Source: Escherichia phage vB_Eco_ZCEC08
Direction: 5' to 3' (one strand)
Sequence record: PP213477.1
DNA: 47,926 bases
Positions 2,928-19,486 of this stretch are shown one piece after another (the first letter of the stretch is position 1; every line of letters starts with the position of its first letter). A program made the translations under genes and the position numbers. The notes under the pieces were generated by a model. It saw nothing but the letters and a program-made list of their open reading frames with translations, made no database searches and was not told where the DNA came from.

Positions 2928-4340
2928 ATGTCAAAAATTGATGCACTAAACGCTTATATACGCGACCGCGTAGCGAACAATAACCGGGCGATCCAGCAGC
3001 AACGGCTTTGCGCTGGCGGGAAGAATCTGGACCAGAAGCGAGAGTTCATGTGGAAGGAACTTGGCTACCCGCAGGAAATCACCGCCGAGATGTTCCGCTA
3101 TGCCTATGAGCGACACCCAGCCGCCGCCGCTGGAATTAACCGCATTATTAATAAATGTTGGCAGAAATACCCTGAAGTTATCGAAGATGGCGAGGATGAC
3201 AAGAACTCAACGACATGGGAGCTGTCCATCAACGACATGATGAAGCGCGCCTACCCGTTCATCAAGGAGGCTGATAAGCGCAACGCCATCAACCGCTATT
3301 CCGCTGTTATCCTGCAAATCCGTGACGGCAAACAGTGGAGTGAGCCTGTAGACATTACAAAAACCCGCCGCATTAAAGATAAATCCATCGCTCGCTTTAT
3401 TCCGGTATGGGAAGAGCAGCTACGCGTTAGCGCATGGAATAACGACGAAACCAGCGAAGACTACGGGATGCCTGAGATGTACGAATATCAGGAAAGCGCC
3501 GTGGAGGACTTCGATAGCGATGGCAAGCCTGAGCGTTCCGTGCAGATTCACCCTGACCGCATCATCATTCTGGCTGAGGGTAGTTTTGACGGCAGTATGT
3601 TCAGTGGCATCCCGATGTTGCGTGCTGGCTACAATAGCCTTATCGACATGGCTAAGGTTTCAGGTAGTTCAGCAGAAGGATTCCTGAAGAATGCCAGCCG
3701 TCAACTGGCTGTTAACTACACGAAGGACAACGTAACGCCAGCAAGCCTTGCGCAGTCTATGGGTGTCGATATTGAAGAACTCACTGACATCATGAATGAG
3801 AACATCGAAGCGCTAAACTCAGGCATCGACGCAGCTATGTTCACAATGGGGGCGGATGCAAAGGTGCTTGCCGTAACGCCAGCCGACCCGAAACCAACAT
3901 GGGAAGTGGCTGCCAACCAGTTCGCTGCATCAATGGCGCTTCCGTTCACCGTCATTTTTGGTCAGCAAACCGGACGCCTTGCGAGTGATGAGGACAAGAT
4001 GCAGGAGGCGATGACAGCCAAGCAGCGCCGCGAAACGTGGGTTGATTATGTCATCTCAATGTTCGTTGAGCGCATGATTCAGTTCGGCATTGTCGATAAA
4101 GCACCGGCAAATGGCTACAAGGTTAAGTGGGATGATCTGCTTGCCCCATCAGAGCTGGATAAAGCTGAATTGCTGTCCAAGCTCGCCACTGCGAACAAGT
4201 CCTTCTTTGATGCTGGTCAATCTGCACTGCTGACCGTCGATGAAGCTCGCGGCATGGTTGGCATGGAGCCGATTGAGCTTGATGAAAGCTACCGCGAAGA
4301 CACACCACCGGAAGACGAAAATGAAGATACTCCGGTTTAA
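2928..4340 (+). CDS. portal protein
   Basis: 470 aa; position directly after terminase region and before head morphogenesis gene; acidic C-terminus. Confidence 0.7.
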
Positions 4341-5271
4341 CGCAAGACTTCCACAGCCGCGCATATCGCAGAGTCTTACCGACCCATTAGGCGCTGCGGC
4401 TCGCCTGCCGAAGATGGACAAGGTGATAACGCGAAAATACAAACAACTCATGGCTCGTGCGCTCGAGTTGTTTCGCACTATTCCGAGCAGTCAGGCTAAC
4501 GCAGAGTCAAGTGGCCTGTATTTCTACGATTTCAGTAGTGCGCGGGCCGCCACTTTTATGGATGAGTTGCAGGCGCTGATTGACGAGATTCTGCTGGAAG
4601 GTGATGATTTCGGTCACGGCAGGATGTGGGCCAATGTGTTCATCGGTGATGCATATCAGGCGGGAACGCAGAAGGCAAACTCAGAGCTATCAAGTCTTTC
4701 TCCGGTTTATGCTGAACAGCGACCGATTGCTGCGATACTCTACAGTGAGCCTTACCTGAACAGGCTGCAACTGGCGTACACATCCGGATATTCAGACTGG
4801 CGCGGACTGAGTGATTACTCCCGTCAGCAACTGGCATCCGTCATCATGGAAGGTATTGCCCGTGGTGCTAATCCTCGCGATGTTGAAGCTGATATTGTTA
4901 AGCGTGTGGATGTGTCTCATAGCTACGCGAAACAGTTGGCGCAGACTGAAATAACCGGAACGCTGCGACAGGCAAACAGGCGGGAGGTCATTGAGGCACG
5001 CGAAGAGCTAGGCATTGAGACGGTGATGCTGTGGCAGTCGGCATTGATGCGCACAACCCGCCAGACGCACGCGGCGAGACACGGCCGGTTTTACACGCCA
5101 GAAGAGATTGACACGTTTTATAGTGAGAATGGCAATAGATATAATTGCCACTGCGCACAGACTCCGGCTTTGTTAATGGGTGGTAAGCCGGTCATTCTTG
5201 AATCGTCGCAGGGAAGGCTTGATAAGCAGCGAGAAGCATGGCAATCAGCCAACAAAAAGCCCTCCAAGTGA
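4321..5271 (+). CDS. head morphogenesis protein (Mu F / SPP1 gp7-like)
   Basis: start moved to ATG overlapping portal stop; [16 protein letters not shown] resembles the F-family motif. Confidence 0.6.
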
Positions 5272-5290
5272 GGGCTTGGTTTTATTTCGA
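5256..5290. terminator. bidirectional rho-independent terminator
   Basis: AGCCCTC-CAAGT-GAGGGCT then TGGTTTTATTT; stop codon of the upstream gene lies in the hairpin; convergent genes on both sides. Confidence 0.55.
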
Positions 5291-5360
5291 TGGCTTATCG
5301 CATTTACTGCACCAACTATTAAGGCACATGCGCCCGCAATGCTTGCATATAGGCCACATA

Positions 5361-6011
5361 TCATTCCTCCAGTTTTACGCCGGGAATCTTGCCTGCCGCG
5401 ATGGCTTCATAAATTAGCTTGGCCTCATCCTCGCGCTTGTAATCTTGAGCTACCATTTCTAACACCGCGCAGATAGACTCAAGTACAGCCTCATGCTTCT
5501 TTTCTGCTTCTGTGCGTAATGGCTTTAGGCTTTCAGGAACGAAGCAGCATGATCGAACAGCACCACCCTCATCCCAGTAGCAAACAGCCACATCGTTTCC
5601 GTCCGTTGTTGTTTTGTGTGCCACAACTTCCATTTCAGTGCCGGCATCAGGAATCCAGGCATTGCGGTATCCTAACTTTGGATTGATGAAGAATTCTACT
5701 TTTGCACCAACTGGAGGTAGGCCTTCGCCGCTCCATGTTGGCTTTTGTGATGCTGCGAGTGCGGATTCGTATTGGCTTCTAGTTACCATTGCCTTCGTAC
5801 TGTCGCATGATAAAACAACATCATTATCAACTCGCCAGTATCCAACTAAACCCTTTCCTGTTCTGTGTCTCCAGCCAAATCCATTGTATCTTGGGTCATC
5901 ATAACGCCAGCAACAGAAATAGCCGTCGGCATCTTGCGTAACCACCACCCAGTTTTCGTTCCACCCACCACGCTTAGGTAATTCTTGAACTAACAGTTCG
6001 ATAAGTTTCAT
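5361..6011 (-). CDS. hypothetical protein (216 aa)
   Basis: ORF track; last gene of a minus-strand cassette. Confidence 0.55.
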   Translation of the reverse strand: MKLIELLVQELPKRGGWNENWVVVTQDADGYFCCWRYDDPRYNGFGWRHRTGKGLVGYWRVDNDVVLSCDSTKAMVTRSQYESALAASQKPTWSGEGLPPVGAKVEFFINPKLGYRNAWIPDAGTEMEVVAHKTTTDGNDVAVCYWDEGGAVRSCCFVPESLKPLRTEAEKKHEAVLESICAVLEMVAQDYKREDEAKLIYEAIAAGKIPGVKLEE

Positions 6012-6012
6012 T

Positions 6013-6264
6013 TCATTCTCCTAGCGCTTTGTTGATTGCACCCTGTGCTGATTTAATCACTTCTGGGTATGCGTCATTCCAGTTTTGCTTATACGCTTTA
6101 CTGAGCATTTTCTGCAAAGCCTCCAGAAGCTCAGGTGCTGCAGCGATGACGTTGGCATCATCCTTATTGGTAACATCGCACACGAATTGGTCGCCATTAC
6201 TATAGACCCCACCAAGTTCATCATCGTAATGCCACGACCCAGGGATTCCTTTAAATTCTTCCAT
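6013..6264 (-). CDS. Ead/Ea22-like family protein
   Basis: motif IAAAPELLEAL...INKALGE shared with ORF 37490..37771; ATG at residue 5 of the track ORF. Confidence 0.5.
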   Translation of the reverse strand: MEEFKGIPGSWHYDDELGGVYSNGDQFVCDVTNKDDANVIAAAPELLEALQKMLSKAYKQNWNDAYPEVIKSAQGAINKALGE

Positions 6265-6272
6265 CACCAACC

Positions 6273-6416
6273 TCACTTAATATATTCAACAATCTCAACT
6301 TCGCGCATCTGCACCAGACTAAATGGCGCAACCACCTTGCCGTACGGACGGATTTTGATTTGCTCAAGGCTGAACATTCTGCGACAACCGCTTTCTTTGA
6401 ATTTGACTATTGCCAT
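6273..6416 (-). CDS. small hypothetical protein (47 aa)
   Basis: hand-translated MAIVKFKESGCRRMFSLEQIK...; not in ORF track; first gene of the minus cassette. Confidence 0.3.
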   Translation of the reverse strand: MAIVKFKESGCRRMFSLEQIKIRPYGKVVAPFSLVQMREVEIVEYIK

Positions 6417-6440
6417 GATTTCTCCCTCACTCATCATTTA

Positions 6441-6477
6441 ATGTAGATACTATGCACCACCACTCAATCTACGTCAA
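6441..6477 (-). promoter_or_regulatory. candidate minus-strand promoter (TTGACG ... TAGTAT) with inverted ATCTAC motifs
   Basis: reverse complement reads TTGACGTAGATTGAGTGGTGGTGCATAGTATCTACAT. Confidence 0.35.
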
Positions 6478-6521
6478 TAGTCATTGTGATAGAATTAATC
6501 ATTATTTGAACTGGAGGCAGA

Positions 6522-6800
6522 ATGAAACTATCGCAACGAGGCGTGGAGACGTTTGGAATTACCGATGCCGTGGATATATCGCCTTACATCACTACCGAGA
6601 CAACGCAGAATCAGTTCGACGCGCTGGCAAGTCTTGCCACCGACATTGGCATTTACGCGTTCCGTAAATCAACGCTTCTGAAGAAGCACAACCTCCGCTG
6701 CTTCTCATGTGCTGTTGCGCATTTCATCGCGTGGGGCGAGAAGACTGGCGACAAAGCAAAACGCAAAGCTGAAAAAGAGGTTTACTGGTATGGCTATTAG
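6522..6800 (+). CDS. hypothetical protein (92 aa) upstream of endolysin
   Basis: ORF track; GGAGG upstream; not hydrophobic enough to call a holin. Confidence 0.45.
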   Translation: MKLSQRGVETFGITDAVDISPYITTETTQNQFDALASLATDIGIYAFRKSTLLKKHNLRCFSCAVAHFIAWGEKTGDKAKRKAEKEVYWYGY

Positions 6801-7254
6801 TAAAAACATGAAGGCGTTTCTGGATATGCTGGCGTACAGCGAGGGCACTGATAACGGGCGGCAGAAAACCAATAATCATGGTTATGATGTGATTGTTGGC
6901 GGCTCACTGTTTACCGACTATTCCGACCACCCGCGCAAGCTGATTAGCCTGCCAAGGCTGGGCATTAAATCCACCGCCGCCGGTCGCTATCAGGTACTGG
7001 CTAAGTTTTATGATGCGTACAAAAAGCAATTGCGTTTACCGGACTTCTCCCCCGCATCGCAGGACGCCATTGCAATGCAGCTAATCCGTGAATGCAAGGC
7101 CACCGCTGATATTGAGGCTGGTCGCATTGCTGATGCCATCCATAAATGCCGCTCCCGCTGGGCCTCATTGCCGGGCGCTGGGTATGGTCAGCATGAGCAG
7201 AAGCTGGATAAGCTGATTCGGGTATACAAAGAGGCTGGCGGAGCTGTGGCATGA
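6790..7254 (+). CDS. R: endolysin, lambda R-like lytic transglycosylase
   Basis: MAISKNMKAFLDMLAYSEGTDNGRQKTNNHGYDVIVGG...WASLPGAGYGQ matches the lambda R sequence as recalled from memory. Confidence 0.85.
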   Translation: MAISKNMKAFLDMLAYSEGTDNGRQKTNNHGYDVIVGGSLFTDYSDHPRKLISLPRLGIKSTAAGRYQVLAKFYDAYKKQLRLPDFSPASQDAIAMQLIRECKATADIEAGRIADAIHKCRSRWASLPGAGYGQHEQKLDKLIRVYKEAGGAVA

Positions 7255-7621: not shown

Positions 7622-8113
7622 ATGATGTCGATTCTCGCTAAATACTGGCGACTGCTGGCAATTATTATAATTGTTGCTGCCTGCGCGCTATGGATTCGCG
7701 GAGAGGTTATAGACTACGGCGACCAGCGATACGCAGAAGGCAAAGCTCAAGCCATCGCAGACCAGAAGGCTGCAGACAAAAAAGAGGAGCAACGACGCAA
7801 TGCAGAACTGCAAAAGATTCAGTCCGACGCACAGCAAAGGATTGATGCTGCGCGCAATGATGCTGTTAATGCTGCTGCTAAGTCTGGCAGGTTGCAGCAA
7901 CAACTCACCAGTATCCGCAAGCAGCTCGTCGGATATTCCACCGCTGAGTCCATTGGCAACCCAGCCGCAGAAACCGGAGTTTTGCTTGCAGACGTGCTCC
8001 GCAAATCTGTCGAAAGAAATCAACAGCTGGCAGATTACGCTGACAGGGCGAGAGAGGCAGGATTGACGTGTGAGGCACAGTATAATTCTCTGCGTAATAA
8101 AAAAGCCCCGTGA
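7622..8113 (+). CDS. Rz: i-spanin (Rz-like)
   Basis: start at MMSILAKYWRLLAIIIIVAACALW (N-terminal TM segment) after GGAGG; coiled-coil periplasmic part; contains embedded Rz1 frame. Confidence 0.65.
   Translation: MMSILAKYWRLLAIIIIVAACALWIRGEVIDYGDQRYAEGKAQAIADQKAADKKEEQRRNAELQKIQSDAQQRIDAARNDAVNAAAKSGRLQQQLTSIRKQLVGYSTAESIGNPAAETGVLLADVLRKSVERNQQLADYADRAREAGLTCEAQYNSLRNKKAP
7845..8066 (+). CDS. Rz1: o-spanin (Rz1-like lipoprotein) embedded in Rz
   Basis: signal peptide MLRAMMLLMLLLSLAGC with lipobox LAGC; proline-rich mature region; lies wholly inside Rz in another frame. Confidence 0.65.
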   Translation: MLRAMMLLMLLLSLAGCSNNSPVSASSSSDIPPLSPLATQPQKPEFCLQTCSANLSKEINSWQITLTGRERQD

Positions 8114-8128
8114 TGGGGCTTTGTTTTA
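8100..8128. terminator. bidirectional rho-independent terminator
   Basis: AGCCCC-GTGA-TGGGGCT flanked by A-run and T-run; Rz stop codon in the loop. Confidence 0.55.
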
Positions 8129-8147
8129 ACCTTCTCCGTAGCCAATG

Positions 8148-8525
8148 TCACGCATAAAGCGCCTCCATCTTGTACCCAAACATAATTGCATTCTGATGCT
8201 CAGTGCTACCAGAAAACACCAGATAGCGTTTACCTCGATTATCCGTAACGATGTAGGCAGCTGGTGAGTTTTCCTTCCTAAATCTGGCTTCGTCATCACT
8301 CCCTTCATACATCCTCCCACTCGCTGGCAGATACAAATCGAATGTTTGAATTTCCGTTCCGCTGCATTCATTGCTACGTTCATTGAACAGGATAGCCAAT
8401 CTTGGGTTGCCATTGGAATGCTTTGCAGGGAATGCGATTCTCCAGCCATCGTACATATACTGACTTGGGTAGGATAGCCATGACTTACCGCGCCTACCCT
8501 CCGTAAGAATCGGCTTACTCGCCAT
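8148..8525 (-). CDS. hypothetical protein
   Basis: ORF track 8148..8573; start moved to MASKPIL (residue 17) with GGAGG upstream. Confidence 0.5.
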   Translation of the reverse strand: MASKPILTEGRRGKSWLSYPSQYMYDGWRIAFPAKHSNGNPRLAILFNERSNECSGTEIQTFDLYLPASGRMYEGSDDEARFRKENSPAAYIVTDNRGKRYLVFSGSTEHQNAIMFGYKMEALYA

Positions 8526-8790
8526 TATGATCCTCCACAATCCGCACCAGTGAGCACTCAAGATTCGGTGCATTGTAATTACCAGCCAGAAACAGCACGC
8601 TACCAGTGCTAATAAGCACCTGCTTCGCGTTCGCCTGCGACAGATTCTGCACGATGAATTGCGCTGTTTCTGTGCCGATTTTCAGCACTGCGCTGCCGTC
8701 GCTGTTCAGTGATACAAGTTGTGCGGAAGTGTCAGTAATGTTGGTGAAGTTCGCGTTTCGCTGCGCGATTGTGATGTCGCAAAAAGACAT
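8515..8790 (-). CDS. hypothetical protein (91 aa)
   Basis: ORF track. Confidence 0.5.
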   Translation of the reverse strand: MSFCDITIAQRNANFTNITDTSAQLVSLNSDGSAVLKIGTETAQFIVQNLSQANAKQVLISTGSVLFLAGNYNAPNLECSLVRIVEDHNGE

Positions 8791-9092
8791 TATTTAATCT
8801 CTCCGTTCAGTTCATTAACAATTAACGTTGCATAGCCAGCAATATCTTTCCAGCTGTCATCATAAGTCGGGTCGCCATTCAGAATGCGCCCAATCTTGTG
8901 CTGAATCATGTCGAGCGCCTCGCGTTGACTTGGTGTGAGATTGCGCCAGCCATCTACCTCGCGCATCACATCTTTCAACTCCTGCATAATTTCAGCGCCG
9001 TCTTTGAATTTACCGTATCGACTACCGCGTTCGGTGATGAGTCGCTCTGTTGCGTCAGTATGGCGCTTATCGCCCGTGATTTGTGAACTCAT
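8790..9092 (-). CDS. hypothetical protein (100 aa)
   Basis: ORF track. Confidence 0.5.
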   Translation of the reverse strand: MSSQITGDKRHTDATERLITERGSRYGKFKDGAEIMQELKDVMREVDGWRNLTPSQREALDMIQHKIGRILNGDPTYDDSWKDIAGYATLIVNELNGEIK

Positions 9093-9579
9093 TGTGATGC
9101 ATTCTCCTGAATTCTTTTATTTTTGCTTCTGCTTCTCTTATGTCGGAAAAGTAACCAACTGTGAATCTTTTGCCATTTACTCCAACTCTTGCATGCCACT
9201 TGTTGTGCGATGAACTCCAGTTAACCCCCTTGATACCGCTAGTGTTGTTTTTGTTCATTGCTTTGTTGTGGCTATTCTCAAATTTGCTGGCCTCCCTTAA
9301 ATTGCACGCCCTGTTGTCATTGCGAATGCCATTAATGTGGTCAATCATTTCACTTGCTGGCGCGCCATGAATGCATATCCATGCCAATCTGTGAGCAAGA
9401 AAAGCCCTACCGCAAAGAATTATTTGCACATATCCATCTGGCTTTAAGTAGCCAGCCACACTCCCTTTTTCTGCAATCCTATTCCTTGTCTTTAGCCATT
9501 TAAATTCCCCAGTTAGTGGATTGTAGTAAAGGTAACTCAATATAAACTCCCTACTCGGCTCATCTCTCCTATGCCTCAT
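9067..9579 (-). CDS. HNH homing endonuclease (AP2-domain type), paralogue 1
   Basis: HRLAW..., IDHINGIRNDNRACNLREAS, GVNWSSSHNKWHARV; paralogous to 10322..10861 and 47414..47926. Confidence 0.7.
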   Translation of the reverse strand: MRHRRDEPSREFILSYLYYNPLTGEFKWLKTRNRIAEKGSVAGYLKPDGYVQIILCGRAFLAHRLAWICIHGAPASEMIDHINGIRNDNRACNLREASKFENSHNKAMNKNNTSGIKGVNWSSSHNKWHARVGVNGKRFTVGYFSDIREAEAKIKEFRRMHHNEFTNHGR

Positions 9580-9782
9580 TTCTCATCCTCTTTCATTGTC
9601 ACCCTATTATTCTCGTCAACACTGAAGTTGGCCCGAATCAAATCATACATATCTTCCTTAGGCATATCAGCCAGCGCCACATAGCAACGGGCGAAGTAGC
9701 GAACATCACGGAGTGTCAGCGGTTGTCGCTTCTCCACAATGCTGGTGATAATGCCCATCGGCTCGCGTCGTGGTCTTGGCAT
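9576..9782 (-). CDS. hypothetical protein (68 aa)
   Basis: ORF track; first gene of the minus operon. Confidence 0.45.
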   Translation of the reverse strand: MPRPRREPMGIITSIVEKRQPLTLRDVRYFARCYVALADMPKEDMYDLIRANFSVDENNRVTMKEDEK

Positions 9783-9808
9783 ATTTACTACTCCTTCTCG
9801 AAAAACAT

Positions 9809-9853
9809 CTTGACGTTTCTACATCATTTAGTCAATACTTGTTGACGTAGATT
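9809..9853. promoter_or_regulatory. divergent regulatory region with inverted TCTACATCA / TGACGTAGA motifs
   Basis: CTTGACGTTTCTACATCATTTAGTCAATACTTGTTGACGTAGATTG between divergent genes. Confidence 0.3.
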
Positions 9854-10139: not shown

Positions 10140-10334
10140 ATGGCGCATGACGAACTGTACGAAGAATCGTTAATCCAGAGGTTGAATGAAGTTGAGCGCA
10201 CTCGCGAATGGCTGGAGTGCGAGTTACGAGAAGTGCGCAACCGCCTGCAACGCAAGCGCAGTCAGCAAAGAGATGTCATCGACTGGTCTGGGGGTACACC
10301 TAAATTTAACAATCTGGGAGAATGGTTGAAATGA
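10140..10334 (+). CDS. hypothetical protein (64 aa)
   Basis: ORF track. Confidence 0.4.
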   Translation: MAHDELYEESLIQRLNEVERTREWLECELREVRNRLQRKRSQQRDVIDWSGGTPKFNNLGEWLK

Positions 10335-10861
10335 GCAACATTAGTCAGGAAAGCATTTTAAAGTTCCTCCAGTATGATGAAAATACAGGAAACTTTCTAT
10401 GGATTGATAATTTCTCAAGAAAATCAAAGAAAGGGAAGGTGGCTGGAGGTATTACATCGCATGGGTATTGGAGAATTCAACTCCCCATCGGGAGGTTTTA
10501 CGCACACAGAATGGCGTGGATTGTTTGCAATGGAGATATACCAAACGGATATGAGATTGATCACATAAATGGGAACAAGAAAGATAATCGCATCAGCAAC
10601 CTAAGATTGGTCACAAGAGGTCAAAATGTTATGAATGTAGGCGTGAAAAACAATAATACAAGCGGAGTTAAGGATGTTGTTTGGGACTCTTCGCGAGAAA
10701 GGTGGGGGGTTCAAATTACAGCCAATGGCAAGCATTATTATGGAGGTAGATTCTCGTCAATAACACAAGCAAAAGAGGAGAGGAACAGGCTCATAAAGAT
10801 GGTTCACGGGAAATTTTTGAATACAAAAGGTGAGCAATATGACACTACTAATGAACGATGA
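10322..10861 (+). CDS. HNH homing endonuclease (AP2-domain type), paralogue 2
   Basis: HRMAW..., IDHINGNKKDNRISNLRLVT, GVKDVVWDSSRERWGVQI. Confidence 0.7.
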   Translation: MVEMSNISQESILKFLQYDENTGNFLWIDNFSRKSKKGKVAGGITSHGYWRIQLPIGRFYAHRMAWIVCNGDIPNGYEIDHINGNKKDNRISNLRLVTRGQNVMNVGVKNNNTSGVKDVVWDSSRERWGVQITANGKHYYGGRFSSITQAKEERNRLIKMVHGKFLNTKGEQYDTTNER

Positions 10862-17687: not shown

Positions 17688-18487
17688 TAAACGGACCTCA
17701 TGAATGCTTTAATGAATTCTGCTGCGACTTGTGGAACTATGGCATTACCATAACCGCGCAATCGTCCCACTCTTGCGGATACCCCATGAGTTGCCTCGCA
17801 AAATCCGCCTGGTATGACTCTAGTTTCCTTATCTGCTCCATGGTTGGGTTTCCATGAATCCCATAAACATGAAGCCACATCTGGCGATAAAGAGTATCGT
17901 TCCTGAATTTCCCGTCCTTTCTGTAAAATGACTTGCTGAGATTCCCGTAATCCTTCCATCCTCGCGCCGTTGGTGTCGCCCATCCTCGCGCCAAAGATGA
18001 TTCTTTTCCTTTCCTGTGGAGAGCCGACGCTGCAAGCTGGCAATACTGACGCCCCGCAGGCGTAGCCTTTGTCTTCCAGGTTAAGGAATACAAAATCGAG
18101 CCAGTGCTTCCCAATTGCTGCTGCAACCTGCTCTCCAAACAGCAATTCAGGCTTGCACTCTCTGATGAGCCTGAGAAATGCTGGGGCAAGGTGTCGATCG
18201 TCGTCAAATCCGAGAGACTTACCGGCAACGCTAAACGGCTGGCAAGGTGGTGATCCTGTCCAGAGTCGAGTGCTTTCTGGTATTCCTGCCAGCTGGAGTG
18301 CAAGGGGCCACCCTCCGATTCCGGCAAAGAAGTGACACTGTGTAAATCCTTCCAGGTCTGAAGGGGTGACTTCGGTGATTGATCGTTCATCGACATATCC
18401 GTAAGGAATTAGTTTATTGTTAATTAATTCACGCAGCCATGCCGCTGCGCCCTTGTCCCACTCATTGTAATAGTGGACCATCATCAC
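17687..18487 (-). CDS. DNA (cytosine-5) methyltransferase
   Basis: motif I FFAGIGG, motif IV PPCQPFSVAGK, GEQV (ENV-like) motif. Confidence 0.8.
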   Translation of the reverse strand: MMMVHYYNEWDKGAAAWLRELINNKLIPYGYVDERSITEVTPSDLEGFTQCHFFAGIGGWPLALQLAGIPESTRLWTGSPPCQPFSVAGKSLGFDDDRHLAPAFLRLIRECKPELLFGEQVAAAIGKHWLDFVFLNLEDKGYACGASVLPACSVGSPQERKRIIFGARMGDTNGARMEGLRESQQVILQKGREIQERYSLSPDVASCLWDSWKPNHGADKETRVIPGGFCEATHGVSARVGRLRGYGNAIVPQVAAEFIKAFMRSV

Positions 18488-19293
18488 ATCTTCTCCAGAA
18501 TTGCCATCACCTCGTGAATATCAGCAACAGGAATCTTGATAAACTCCTCATTCTCTGCCACTACATGACCAGCAAGAAGAATAACGTGGTCAGCTGGCTT
18601 CAGTAACTCAATCAGTCGGTCTACTGGCTTAATCTTTTTCGACTTAAGCACCTTCGCCGTTACCTTATCCTTGCCTTGCGCCTTCGCTTCTTCGACTGCC
18701 TCGTCGATAACTTTAACCGCATCATCGCCATGTTCGCGAGTTACTGCTACGGCATTTGCATAGCTGATTTGCCCTGCACTGATTCGCGCTTTTACTTCGG
18801 CTGGCACATCACCCAGTGACAGGTGCATCTGCACGTCAGAAACTGAGCGCCCTACCTTCTTGGCGATTTCCTCGTTGGTCCAGCCAAAACCCTTCAGTCG
18901 CGTGTAAGCCTTTGCGCGTTCAAACGGGTCAAGCTGCTTACCCTGACTGGACGACACCATGAAGGCGATTTTATCTGCTTCGCCTCCTGTGAAATCCTTG
19001 CACTCAATACGAACAATTGGTGCGCCACGCTCAATGGCACGCAATGCGCCTAGATAGCGATGCTGACCATCAAGAATGCGGATTCCCTTCTCATCAGGAA
19101 TAACTGTTAATGCTGGTAATGGCTGACCTGATTCCCAGCACTGCGCGAAATACTCCACATGCTGCTCGTCTGCTTCGCGGATGTTGTATCCCGGCTCCAG
19201 ATAGATTTGCTCCACTGGCACGAGATAGGTTTTGTTAACAGCGATTCCGTTGCGCGTTTCTTTGTCTGAATAGATTTTGCTAAGTGTTTTCAT
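18484..19293 (-). CDS. ParB-like nuclease domain protein
   Basis: ILDGQHRY (ParB/Srx DGxHR motif) plus helix-turn-helix-like TNEEIAKKVGRSVSDV; start moved to residue 32 (MKTLSK). Confidence 0.65.
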   Translation of the reverse strand: MKTLSKIYSDKETRNGIAVNKTYLVPVEQIYLEPGYNIREADEQHVEYFAQCWESGQPLPALTVIPDEKGIRILDGQHRYLGALRAIERGAPIVRIECKDFTGGEADKIAFMVSSSQGKQLDPFERAKAYTRLKGFGWTNEEIAKKVGRSVSDVQMHLSLGDVPAEVKARISAGQISYANAVAVTREHGDDAVKVIDEAVEEAKAQGKDKVTAKVLKSKKIKPVDRLIELLKPADHVILLAGHVVAENEEFIKIPVADIHEVMAILEKM

Positions 19294-19294
19294 A

Positions 19295-19486
19295 TCATTC
19301 ACCACTTTCTTCCAATAATTGCTCGTAATATGCGACGTACTCATTAGCAAGATGGTACAGGCGCTCAGCAGACTTGCGTTCTGCATTACTTAAGTCACCA
19401 ATAGACTCAATGTTGCCAATTGCATCAACACAATCATTGAAGTCTTGCTCTGTATTACGAAATCGACAGTAGGACATGTTTGCCAT
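19295..19486 (-). CDS. hypothetical protein (63 aa)
   Basis: ORF track. Confidence 0.4.
   Translation of the reverse strand: MANMSYCRFRNTEQDFNDCVDAIGNIESIGDLSNAERKSAERLYHLANEYVAYYEQLLEESGE

Follow-up and report, generated by a model that had tools for sequence, protein, structure and literature searches.

A leftward four-gene cassette between the head and lysis genes of Escherichia phage vB_Eco_ZCEC08 is probably a host-interaction accessory operon

A short run of minus-strand genes lies between the head-morphogenesis gene Mu-F and the lysis genes of Escherichia phage vB_Eco_ZCEC08, and we asked what kind of locus it represents. The window in this study is the whole stretch of DNA analysed, 47,926 nt from record PP213477.1. 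This phage is a virulent siphophage of the Skatevirus group; Skatevirus phages are described as lytic or virulent, and no integrase or repressor is annotated in ST1UNAM, whose genome is 96% identical. The minus-strand genes form a leftward operon of four genes (47, 83, 216 and 25 aa) with a promoter and a terminator of its own. We consider it most probable (about 0.6) that the locus is a dispensable, early-type host-interaction accessory operon of a virulent Skatevirus-group phage. Its features, in the order of leftward transcription, are as follows.

6487..6495, plus strand: TGATAGAAT, a putative extended -10 element of the lysis genes, which run rightward; read from the sequence
6449..6477, minus strand: candidate sigma-70-like cassette promoter, with -35 TTGACG (6477..6472), a 17-nt spacer and -10 CATAGT (6454..6449)
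6477..6467, minus strand: copy of the recurrent motif, TTGACGTAGAT, overlapping the -35
6438..6448, plus strand: copy of the recurrent motif, TTAATGTAGAT, spanning the putative +1
6273..6416, minus strand: p47, first gene, 47 aa; phrog_21280, E 6.4e-25
6013..6264, minus strand: p83, 83 aa with the ATG at 6264 as start (87 aa if the GTG at 6276 is used; homologs have 83 aa)
5361..6011, minus strand: p216, 216 aa, modular; phrog_7798, E 7.9e-64
p216 residues 1-17: conserved N-cap
p216 residues 18-74: variable module V1
p216 residues 75-102: conserved linker
p216 residues about 103-163: variable module V2, modelled as an SH3/Tudor-like barrel
p216 residues 173-198: variable helix V3
p216 residues 199-216: conserved C-cap
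5282..5359, minus strand: unannotated 25-aa micro-ORF MWPICKHCGRMCLNSWCSKCDKPSK, Cys-rich, with a CxxC...CxxC pattern
5247..5287, both strands: predicted bidirectional intrinsic terminator, a stem-loop (5257..5277) with U-tracts on each strand

Gene content and protein families

The original prediction comprised a 47-aa ORF, an Ea22-like protein and a 216-aa protein. All three ORFs proved to be real genes, but the fourth gene, of 25 aa, had been overlooked. The gaps between p47, p83 and p216 are 1-8 nt, and a Shine-Dalgarno sequence is located ahead of each gene. Comparison with relatives revealed purifying selection within lineages, with dN/dS values of 0.2-0.4 for p47, about 0.33 for p83 and, against close relatives, 0.05-0.06 for p216; conservation as coding sequence, which had been proposed as a check of the prediction, was thus confirmed over a range of 0.05-0.4. 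The idea that these ORFs are chance frames in a non-coding spacer could draw on the annotation of their products solely as hypothetical proteins. However, it is already refuted by the selection analysis, it agrees neither with the gene spacing and Shine-Dalgarno sequences nor with the homologs and structure models described below, and its probability is close to nil.

The ATG of the micro-ORF lies 1 nt past the p216 stop codon, its Shine-Dalgarno sequence GGAGGA falls within the final p216 codons, and its stop codon is positioned 4 nt ahead of the terminator stem. The micro-ORF is present in five phages, and all five Cys residues are retained. When four of the five copies were compared, the summed pN/pS was 0.11 in the micro-ORF frame, 5.9 in the frame of a 39-aa ORF and 1.26 in the third frame. 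The 39-aa ORF (5245..5364), which appeared in the mechanical ORF list, was rejected as a wrong frame owing to this value of 5.9.

The Ea22-like identity suggested for the middle gene had to be abandoned. By sequence comparison, p83 is a P22 Orf78-type protein (Pfam PF27050, Phage_P22_Y8K6), an assignment made through the annotation of its homologs and the match to P22 orf78. PF27050 is recorded in a precomputed table for all of at least 120 p83 homologs, one of them 96% identical to p83, and the p83 homolog profile detected P22 orf78, a gene of the left early (PL) operon, at E 3.2e-11. Neither Ea22 nor EaD was found at E values up to 10, whether by BLASTP from p83 or with a profile of 117 homologs at maximum sensitivity, and the hhalign probability was 0.15%. 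The NCBIfam scan of the cassette proteins yielded nothing meaningful and no match to the Ea22 family. The architecture differs as well: Ea22 is a three-part protein of about 180-200 aa with a central coiled coil (PMC10834534), whereas p83 has 83 aa, and its model predicts a small three-stranded sheet followed by helices, with no long coiled coil. The location of p83, between Mu-F and the lysis genes in a phage without integrase or repressor, also counted against an Ea22-like protein. p83 belongs to phrog_1273 (E 9.8e-20), which, like phrog_21280 and phrog_7798, is labelled 'unknown function', and its profile search of solved structures returned nothing credible. An obligate pairing of p83 with p216 was rejected as well, given that only 10 of the 66 non-syntenic loci contained both genes within the stretch covered. 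As to p47, it is confined to this phage group, and a Pfam domain was found in none of its 40 homologs.

Residues 1-215 of p216 match positions 1-220 of the 221 in the phrog_7798 profile. The family consists of approximately 1,576 clusters at 50% identity and has no known (Pfam) domain; ten longer or fused members recovered by an exhaustive search contain no such domain, and none was present in three insertion variants or in the homologs from Skate and 64795_sal3 (sal3). Conservation along the protein is strikingly uneven: the caps are 86-94% identical, V1, in which identity is only 21%, splits into 20 clusters, and 29 combinations of V1 and V2 occur. In the model, V2 is predicted to be a small SH3/Tudor-like beta-barrel that superposes on solved barrels. 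Thus, the profile and structure searches recommended for the 216-aa protein produced phrog_7798 and a barrel fold and no match that would assign a function. Nothing credible emerged when solved structures were searched with the p216 profile; no relationship to Ea22 or EaD was detected by BLASTP, profile searching or hhalign, and complete E. coli genomes, searched at the DNA level, contained no match to p216-type genes. In general, the cassette proteins gave confident structure models, and their homologs number in the thousands.

We also considered that p216 could be a SUKH-type immunity or inhibitor protein directed against a host or phage toxin. A weak SMI1_KNR4 match to residues 11-71 (E 0.028, 15.4 bits) points in this direction, and the p216 family shows the polymorphism that is common among immunity families. 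The match was rejected, its score lying below the cut-off of 25.4 bits for SUKH-1 (PF09346); it recurred in only 7 of 118 family members, 0.028 being the best E value. We therefore regard a SUKH-type function as very unlikely.

Promoter, recurrent motif and terminator

A minus-strand promoter with inverted ATCTAC motifs had been predicted upstream of the cassette, and a matching candidate site was indeed located at 6477..6449, within a 105-bp intergenic gap. In 22 of the 25 syntenic relatives it is either identical or altered at no more than two positions, despite differences in the first gene downstream; the -10 variants are CATAAT and TATTGT, with A2 and T6 retained. In a consensus scan compared with shuffled sequences, sigma-70-like sites were not enriched in the window (10 found, 8.4 expected). 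Host RNA polymerase would probably initiate at this conserved sigma-70-type promoter, placing the start of the cassette transcript near 6441.

The inverted pair GTAGAT (6443..6448) and ATCTAC (6467..6472) occurs once, against 0.01 pairs expected. We found that ATCTAC belongs to a genome-wide 9-mer, TGAYGTAGA, which is present in 12 copies against 0.59 expected, and in Skate in 11 copies against 0.9 at equivalent sites. In the candidate cassette promoter, TGAYGTAGAT appears to cover the -35, and a second, inverted copy the putative start site. The motif stands at the head of most non-structural transcription units, including those for replication and recombination, and it is likewise found ahead of the cassette in the clade whose Mu-F is 64-77% identical. 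Sharing this motif with the replication and recombination units makes the cassette promoter part of the phage's own programme, and the motif also heads small-gene units, so that the cassette is most likely expressed in the early or middle programme. A motif-binding factor may switch the cassette in concert with these other units. The product labelled 'transcription factor' in ST1UNAM is an HNH endonuclease and thus provides no candidate regulator. Moreover, since the motif serves as the -35 in some promoters and as the -10 (TAGATT) in others, it could form part of the core promoters instead of serving as an operator. In the empty site of the relative L101, a single case, both motif copies are mutated. 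A text search of the literature for TGAYGTAGA returned only unrelated titles among the matches listed.

The block 6439..6520 is near-invariant in five phages and includes the candidate extended -10 of the lysis genes at 6487..6495, which the consensus scan did not recover.

The bidirectional terminator predicted at about 5256..5290 agrees with what we observed. The hairpin at 5257..5277 has an 8-bp stem with five G-C pairs, is flanked by T-runs on both strands and folds at -23.5 kcal/mol (z-score -4.0), thus displaying the G+C-rich hairpin and U-tract of a Rho-independent terminator. It is conserved in relatives, and the Skate record annotates a terminator at this position. The terminator is common to the cassette and the convergent portal/Mu-F unit, and its stem contains the stop codon of Mu-F (5269..5271). 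Transcription of the four translationally packed genes would therefore be expected to stop at a hairpin that also ends the convergent head-gene unit. A match to the Trp operon leader (RF00513) in this region was rejected: its score was 26.6 bits against a gathering threshold of 41, the terminator hairpin carries the alignment, and no tandem Trp codons are present.

Variability of the site and its relation to morons

The distance between Mu-F and the lysis genes ranged from 214 to 2515 bp across 69 loci, the site itself being fixed. Among these loci, about 55 carried a substantial p216-family gene, 8 had none and 3 had a 36-aa remnant. Between loci the flanking genes are 85-98% identical, compared with 29-68% for p216 and 31-86% for p83. 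The site and the promoter are retained clade-wide, even in the branch with Mu-F only 64-77% identical. The comparison with relatives lacking the cassette, also recommended at the outset, was provided by L101: there, Mu-F shares 94% identity and is separated from the lysis genes by just 214 bp, which contain no cassette gene. This empty site retains the terminator and the promoter region. The promoter and terminator form fixed boundaries, and relatives have exchanged, reshuffled or lost the genes that lie between them.

Viable genome-reduced mutants of the Skatevirus phage seszw lack genes 69-72 (PMC9825161), among them a gene of the p83 family and a homolog of p216 with 47% identity. Most cassette genes are therefore probably dispensable in the laboratory, as judged from this relative. 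The p47 homolog, seszw gene 73, was kept in the reduced genome, as was the upstream neighbour of p47, implying that dispensability need not extend to the whole cassette.

The cassette had been proposed to be a moron interrupting the plus-strand late operon. In its classical sense, this would mean a recently acquired foreign cassette that benefits the lysogen or the host. The form of the locus fits: at the sequence level a promoter and a terminator of its own flank the genes, these genes run against those on either side, the content varies and is dispensable in seszw, and the flanking genes are adjacent in L101. In addition, p216 and p83 homologs are found in early accessory regions of prophages, where the p216 homologs adjoin int/xis or recT/exo, and the GC content of the cassette is 5-6 points lower than that of the directly flanking genes (about 52%). 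However, the composition is not distinct from that of the phage, the cassette GC being 46.4% and the genome mean 46.5%. The promoter and site are conserved across the clade, and the promoter carries the phage-wide motif. The group is lytic and no lysogeny module is annotated in ST1UNAM, so the classical rationale of expression from a prophage does not apply to this virulent phage. Nor is a single late operon interrupted, because the terminator and promoter region separate the flanking genes even in the empty site. A classical moron is therefore a rather unlikely explanation, and the best reading is that the cassette is moron-like in form and is not a lysogenic-conversion moron.

Another explanation is that the cassette tunes its neighbours, the lysis timing or the head genes, either through its products, e.g., in an antiholin-like or endolysin-regulating role, or by convergent or divergent transcription interfering with Mu-F and the lysis promoters. 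This would suit its position between head-morphogenesis and lysis genes, the invariant 80-bp divergent control region that it shares with the lysis genes, and the terminator that it shares with Mu-F. However, the content of the cassette is hypervariable and sometimes absent, the p216 and p83 homologs were deleted in the viable seszw mutants, both families are also found in early regions of prophages, distant from lysis and head genes, and inspection of the p216, p83 and p47 sequences revealed no evident membrane segment. We consider a role in neighbour regulation improbable.

Proposed role and comparison with known systems

Its fixed boundaries, gene exchange and laboratory dispensability lead us to read the cassette as a host-interaction accessory locus, with a possible role in host takeover, counter-defence or inter-phage competition. 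Homology and fold matches assigned a function to none of the four proteins, and PADLOC, the library of which models defence and not counter-defence, gave no match to the cassette proteins. Skatevirus phages are reported to be markedly sensitive to the restriction-modification (RM) and Old defence systems, which implies that any counter-defence role is not directed against those systems. p216 may be a modular binding protein whose caps engage a conserved partner and whose swapped inner modules engage variable targets. As a tentative extension, to which we attach a low probability, the p216 family could form a shuffled adaptor system, with the N- and C-terminal parts clamping onto a single conserved machine of the host or the phage and the inner domains retargeting it to various host proteins, e.g., defence sensors. 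The fixed-promoter site would then be a counter-defence diversification locus in virulent and temperate enterobacterial phages, and the terminal micro-proteins, for which the Cys-rich 25-mer and a hydrophobic 26-mer are alternatives, would be cofactors.

If the accessory-operon reading is correct, the locus is a delimited plug-in site with an invariant promoter and terminator in a phage group used for biocontrol of Salmonella and E. coli, and most genes at this site are removable in the related phage seszw, which is of interest for engineering. The p216 family is large and dark, and its design of caps and swappable modules suggests an arms-race interface. For annotation, the analysis adds two conserved micro-genes overlooked by gene-calling programs and corrects the 'Ead/Ea22' label that is spreading among records.

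Morons of lambdoid and HK97-like phages are promoter-gene-terminator units located between conserved genes. The cassette resembles them in its promoter-like site and terminator, antisense orientation, variability, dispensability in a relative and the empty site of a close relative, and differs in belonging to a virulent phage with no prophage-state expression, in its clade-wide site, in a promoter that carries the phage's own recurrent motif and in its genome-mean composition. The class I genes 0.3-0.7 of T7 constitute a promoter-proximal variable early locus for host takeover and counter-defence. The cassette is similar in having a host-type promoter and small dispensable genes with high turnover among relatives; unlike the T7 locus, it encodes no protein matching a known counter-defence protein, and its phage group is reportedly sensitive to RM and Old. 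It also recalls the exo-xis region of lambda (Ea22, Ea8.5) and the ea/orf genes of the P22 PL operon, which are non-essential, early and without an assigned function: p83 and P22 Orf78 are true homologs, and p216-family genes occupy such early accessory regions in prophages. p83 and p216 have no detectable homology to Ea22 or EaD, and the cassette, unlike these regions, has the head and lysis genes of a virulent phage as its neighbours; in such a phage the pro-lysogenic role of Ea22 (PMC7093339) would have no meaning. In design, p216 nevertheless resembles Ea22, whose conserved ends surround a variable body (PMC10834534). As an accessory region of a phage, the locus is of an ordinary type; it adds a few new details and leaves the current understanding of such loci in place.

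Gene anatomy and coding status of the cassette

The leftward small-gene operon between the Mu-F head gene and the lysis genes, whose proteins p47, p83 and p216 are named by their lengths, comprises the following elements:

6477..6449, minus strand: sigma-70-like promoter TTGACG-17-CATAGT, detected in the promoter scan
6273..6416, minus strand: p47 ORF, 47 aa, with a Shine-Dalgarno sequence
ATG at 6264, minus strand: p83 ORF, 83 aa as in its homologs (87 aa from the GTG at 6276), with a Shine-Dalgarno sequence
5361..6011, minus strand: p216 ORF, 216 aa, with a Shine-Dalgarno sequence
5282..5359, minus strand: fourth gene, a 25-aa micro-ORF MWPICKHCGRMCLNSWCSKCDKPSK
5257..5277, both strands: terminator, 8-bp stem with 5 G-C pairs and T-runs on either side

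The gaps among the cassette ORFs are 1-8 nt. The original prediction of a minus-strand promoter with inverted ATCTAC motifs and of a bidirectional terminator was borne out at the sequence level. Promoter-like sites are not enriched in the stretch as a class (10 versus 8.4 expected), so the scan by itself is no proof and conservation is what counts. The putative 37-nt promoter element TTGACGTAGATTGAGTGGTGGTGCATAGTATCTACAT is unchanged or carries at most two changes in 22 of the 25 syntenic loci, and it is kept even though these loci differ in their first cassette gene; the -10 variants of the relatives (CATAAT, TATTGT) retain A2 and T6. The inverted pair GTAGAT (6443..6448) and ATCTAC (6467..6472) was found once, compared with 0.01 expected. 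The terminator, with T-runs on both strands and a fold z-score of -4.0, is conserved in five phages, and the Skate record annotates a terminator there.

The three larger ORFs had been predicted to be coding, and purifying selection was seen in all of them. Compared with Salmonella phage vB_SenS_ST1UNAM and HC6, p216 has 20-21 synonymous and 4-5 non-synonymous differences (dN/dS 0.05-0.06), and in comparisons with relatives about 87% identical p47 has a ratio of 0.20-0.38 and p83 one of about 0.33. The 83-nt spacer from the p216 stop to the terminator stem also contains a 39-aa ORF, which we rejected as a gene because nearly all of its differences from relatives are non-synonymous (pN/pS 5.9). 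The 25-aa micro-ORF lies in another frame: its ATG is 1 nt past the p216 stop, GGAGGA is located 5 nt upstream, and its stop codon is 4 nt ahead of the terminator stem. It is present in five phages, where all five cysteines are retained via synonymous TGC/TGT changes, and pairwise comparison of four of the five copies yields a summed pN/pS of 0.11 for the 25-aa frame; the corresponding value is 5.9 for the 39-aa frame and 1.26 for the remaining one. Most relatives carry another spacer, encoding a 26-aa hydrophobic micro-ORF MIKTIFSVVEILCYAIIIFVLCMLIR with its stop immediately 5' of the terminator (pN/pS 0.10, 14 distinct DNA versions), which replaces the Cys-rich one in L092, L102, L104, L111, L115, L118-L121 and other relatives' loci, as well as in HC6, Skate and sal3. 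Neither micro-ORF is annotated in the database records examined.

The p83 and p216 families

The 83-aa protein had been called Ea22-like, and this assignment failed. No match to lambda Ea22 or P22 EaD was obtained at E up to 10, either by BLASTP with p83 or with a 117-sequence p83 profile at maximum sensitivity, and hhalign gave a probability of 0.15%. The profile instead matched P22 orf78 (E 3.2e-11), a gene of the left early (PL) operon located between ral and gene 17. Pfam PF27050 'Phage_P22_Y8K6' was found on all p83 homologs listed, and the label 'Ead protein' is used in the ZK22 record only.

For p216, in agreement with the earlier statement that it has no recognisable motif, Pfam, NCBIfam and PADLOC offered no fitting family; its match is phrog_7798 (E 7.9e-64), which is labelled 'unknown function'. 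In a 90%-clustered collection the family numbers 2,284 members, and at 50% identity 1,576 representatives (E ≤ 1e-3). Matches occur in 246 records of the annotated phage collection, and every annotated match among the 40 rows sampled across their ranking is 'hypothetical'. The alignment reveals a near-invariant N-cap MKLIDLLVQELPKRGGW, a near-invariant C-cap IYDAIAAGKIPGVKLED and a conserved linker (IVTRxQYESALAASQKPAWNGEGLPPVG), which enclose three variable segments, V1, V2 and V3. Across 118 members, identity is 86-94% in the caps, 21% in V1 (20 clusters) and 34% in V3 (13 clusters), while V2 forms 10 clusters and V1 and V2 occur in 29 combinations. Some members carry an additional inserted module; no recognisable added domain was detected in ten longer ones. 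An identity as SUKH-1 was discarded, since the match was sub-threshold and limited to 7 of the 118 members.

Homologs of p216 are located in early accessory regions, both in prophage-like loci of viral contigs and in Erwinia, Yokenella and Pseudescherichia genomes, with int/xis adjoining or with recT/exo and a cI-like repressor nearby. In 10 of 66 such loci the stretch examined also includes a p83-family gene in the same orientation. Thus, the 'Ea' intuition was right on the temperate-phage neighbourhood but wrong on the family. In two prophage-type loci a gene for a P22 EaG-like zinc-ribbon protein (MICPKCGS...) is situated 350-560 nt upstream of the p216 homolog:

L031:2471-2644, EaG-like zinc-ribbon gene
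L048:2264-2437, EaG-like zinc-ribbon gene

Together with the Cys-rich micro-ORF, these neighbours hint that small zinc-binding proteins may repeatedly accompany the family, in a sample far too small to say.

Fixed boundaries, changing content and dispensability

We gathered 69 loci via the Mu-F head gene (64-97% identical), in which 214 to 2,515 bp lie between the Mu-F stop and the lysis genes. A substantial p216-family gene converges on Mu-F in about 55 of them and none is present in 8. Three loci contain p47 and a 36-aa in-frame remnant alone, the latter ending in the p216 C-cap. Two of these remnants and, in another locus, an empty site are located as follows:

L115:4531-4641 and L119:4532-4642, remnant ORF MRLIMTQREVYQLFSEYEIIYDAIAAGKIPGVKLDD
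L101:4442-4660 (IMGVR_UViG_642483487), empty site

At its start the remnant resembles the MRLVM that opens the p83 GTG frame of the window, a likeness suggesting that an internal deletion may have fused p83-type and p216 genes. At the empty site, the Mu-F stop and the lysis-gene ATG are only 214 bp apart with no gene between them, and what remains is the promoter block, the terminator and a degenerate version of the micro-ORF spacer. The two motif copies have changed to GTAGGC and ATCTGC and the terminator has a weaker stem, whereas the -35 hexamer is intact; this single case fits a relaxation of constraint once the cassette was lost.

In a close group of about 25 loci, the flanks are conserved (Mu-F 91-96%, the 92-aa lysozyme-like protein 83-93% and the holin mostly 85-98% identical), whereas identity falls to 29-68% in p216 and to 31-86% in p83, where p83 is present at all. 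This implies fixed boundaries with fast-changing content. Relative to ST1UNAM, Mu-F (4240..5271) has a synonymous divergence of 0.59; on the 5361..6800 side the value is 0.16 for p216 and 0 for each of p83, p47 and the gene of the 92-aa lysozyme-like protein, and such a jump indicates a recent recombination boundary at or near the terminator.

The lysis side of the site contains two tandem endolysin-like genes, at the position of which HC6 has one 146-aa lysozyme:

6522..6800, plus strand: 92-aa putative enzyme, matching the Phage_lysozyme profile at positions 55-114 of 125 only
6788..7254, plus strand: lambda-R-type transglycosylase

In seszw the cassette corresponds to genes 69-74, gene 70 being the p216 homolog (47% identical). 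A CRISPR-based genome-reduction study reported viable seszw mutants that had spontaneously lost 'genes 69-71' (PMC9825161). The deposited mutant seszw_300S (36,991 bp) is without genes 69-72 and retains the p47 homolog (gene 73) as well as gene 74, and the same 59% coverage of the region is seen in many other deposited seszw mutants. Thus, plaque growth on the laboratory host requires neither the p216-type nor the p83-type genes.

A genome-wide motif and the status of the cassette

The sequence TGAYGTAGA occurs 12 times in the window (0.59 expected) and 11 times in Skate (0.9 expected), at equivalent positions. The copies of the window are:

1473, minus strand: intergenic, just downstream of the large terminase gene
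6468, minus strand: heads the cassette under study
9818 (minus) and 9843 (plus): two divergent small-gene units
13709: a further copy
20142 and 20173, minus strand: unit with EaC, ParB-like, methylase and clamp genes
24588, minus strand: unit containing a superinfection-immunity gene
37798, minus strand: exonuclease, recombinase and SSB unit
40425, minus strand: helicase unit
44578 and 44595, plus strand: small-gene unit

Eleven of the 12 copies are intergenic, the majority head non-structural units, and pairs that differ in spacing and orientation are frequent. In a more distant clade (Mu-F 64-77% identical) the cassette is likewise headed by the motif. The motif provides the -35 (TTGACG) in some promoters and the -10 (TAGATT) in others, 17 nt after TTGACA, TTGACG or TTGCCT; in the cassette a second, inverted copy overlies the inferred start site. 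The motif may be an operator or a promoter signature. One of the motif-headed units encodes a 300-aa ParB/KorB-type helix-turn-helix protein (18484..19386, minus strand; ParB HTH E 2.9e-11, KorB E 4.4e-06), which, speculatively, is a candidate motif binder or global DNA-binding regulator.

Directly after the lysis genes lies a second leftward small-gene cassette of the same architecture (8126..9790, minus strand), with its own bidirectional terminator (8102..8122) and a motif-bearing promoter at 9818 (minus strand); among its products are a DUF6378 protein and an HNH/AP2 endonuclease (9067..9579). The genome as a whole has at least three HNH-type genes, dispersed along its length. The product of 10322..10861 (plus strand) is a 'transcription factor' in the ST1UNAM record, a label that we rejected as Pfam gives an HNH_3 homing endonuclease (E 3.6e-20).

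The cassette had been regarded as a moron, and in form it is one. Beyond form this reading does not hold: whether operator or promoter signature, a motif shared genome-wide would wire the cassette into the phage's own programme, unlike autonomous foreign DNA. The GC content of the cassette is 46.4%, compared with a genome mean of 46.5%, and only the adjoining portal/Mu-F and lysis genes have a higher value, about 52%; the GC skew reverses sign across the cassette, as expected from minus-strand genes. Short units on either strand make up the genome like a patchwork, and several small-gene units already split head, lysis and tail genes from one another. The cassette region is 96.1% identical to that of ST1UNAM across its full length, and the kin of the phage include Skate, ZK22 and seszw (Skatevirus), 64795_sal3 (Saltrevirus), HC6 and swi2. 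The annotated genes of ST1UNAM include helicase, primase, recombinase, SSB and numerous small genes, and no integrase or repressor is among them.

The original observation was largely right. Anatomy, coding status, variability and dispensability of the cassette are shown, and it is best interpreted as a dispensable operon at a conserved plug-in site, which in timing, regulation and function would be of an early, host-interaction type, with p216 as its putative modular binding protein. Its interest is modest; the kind of locus is already known, and the cassette is one more member.
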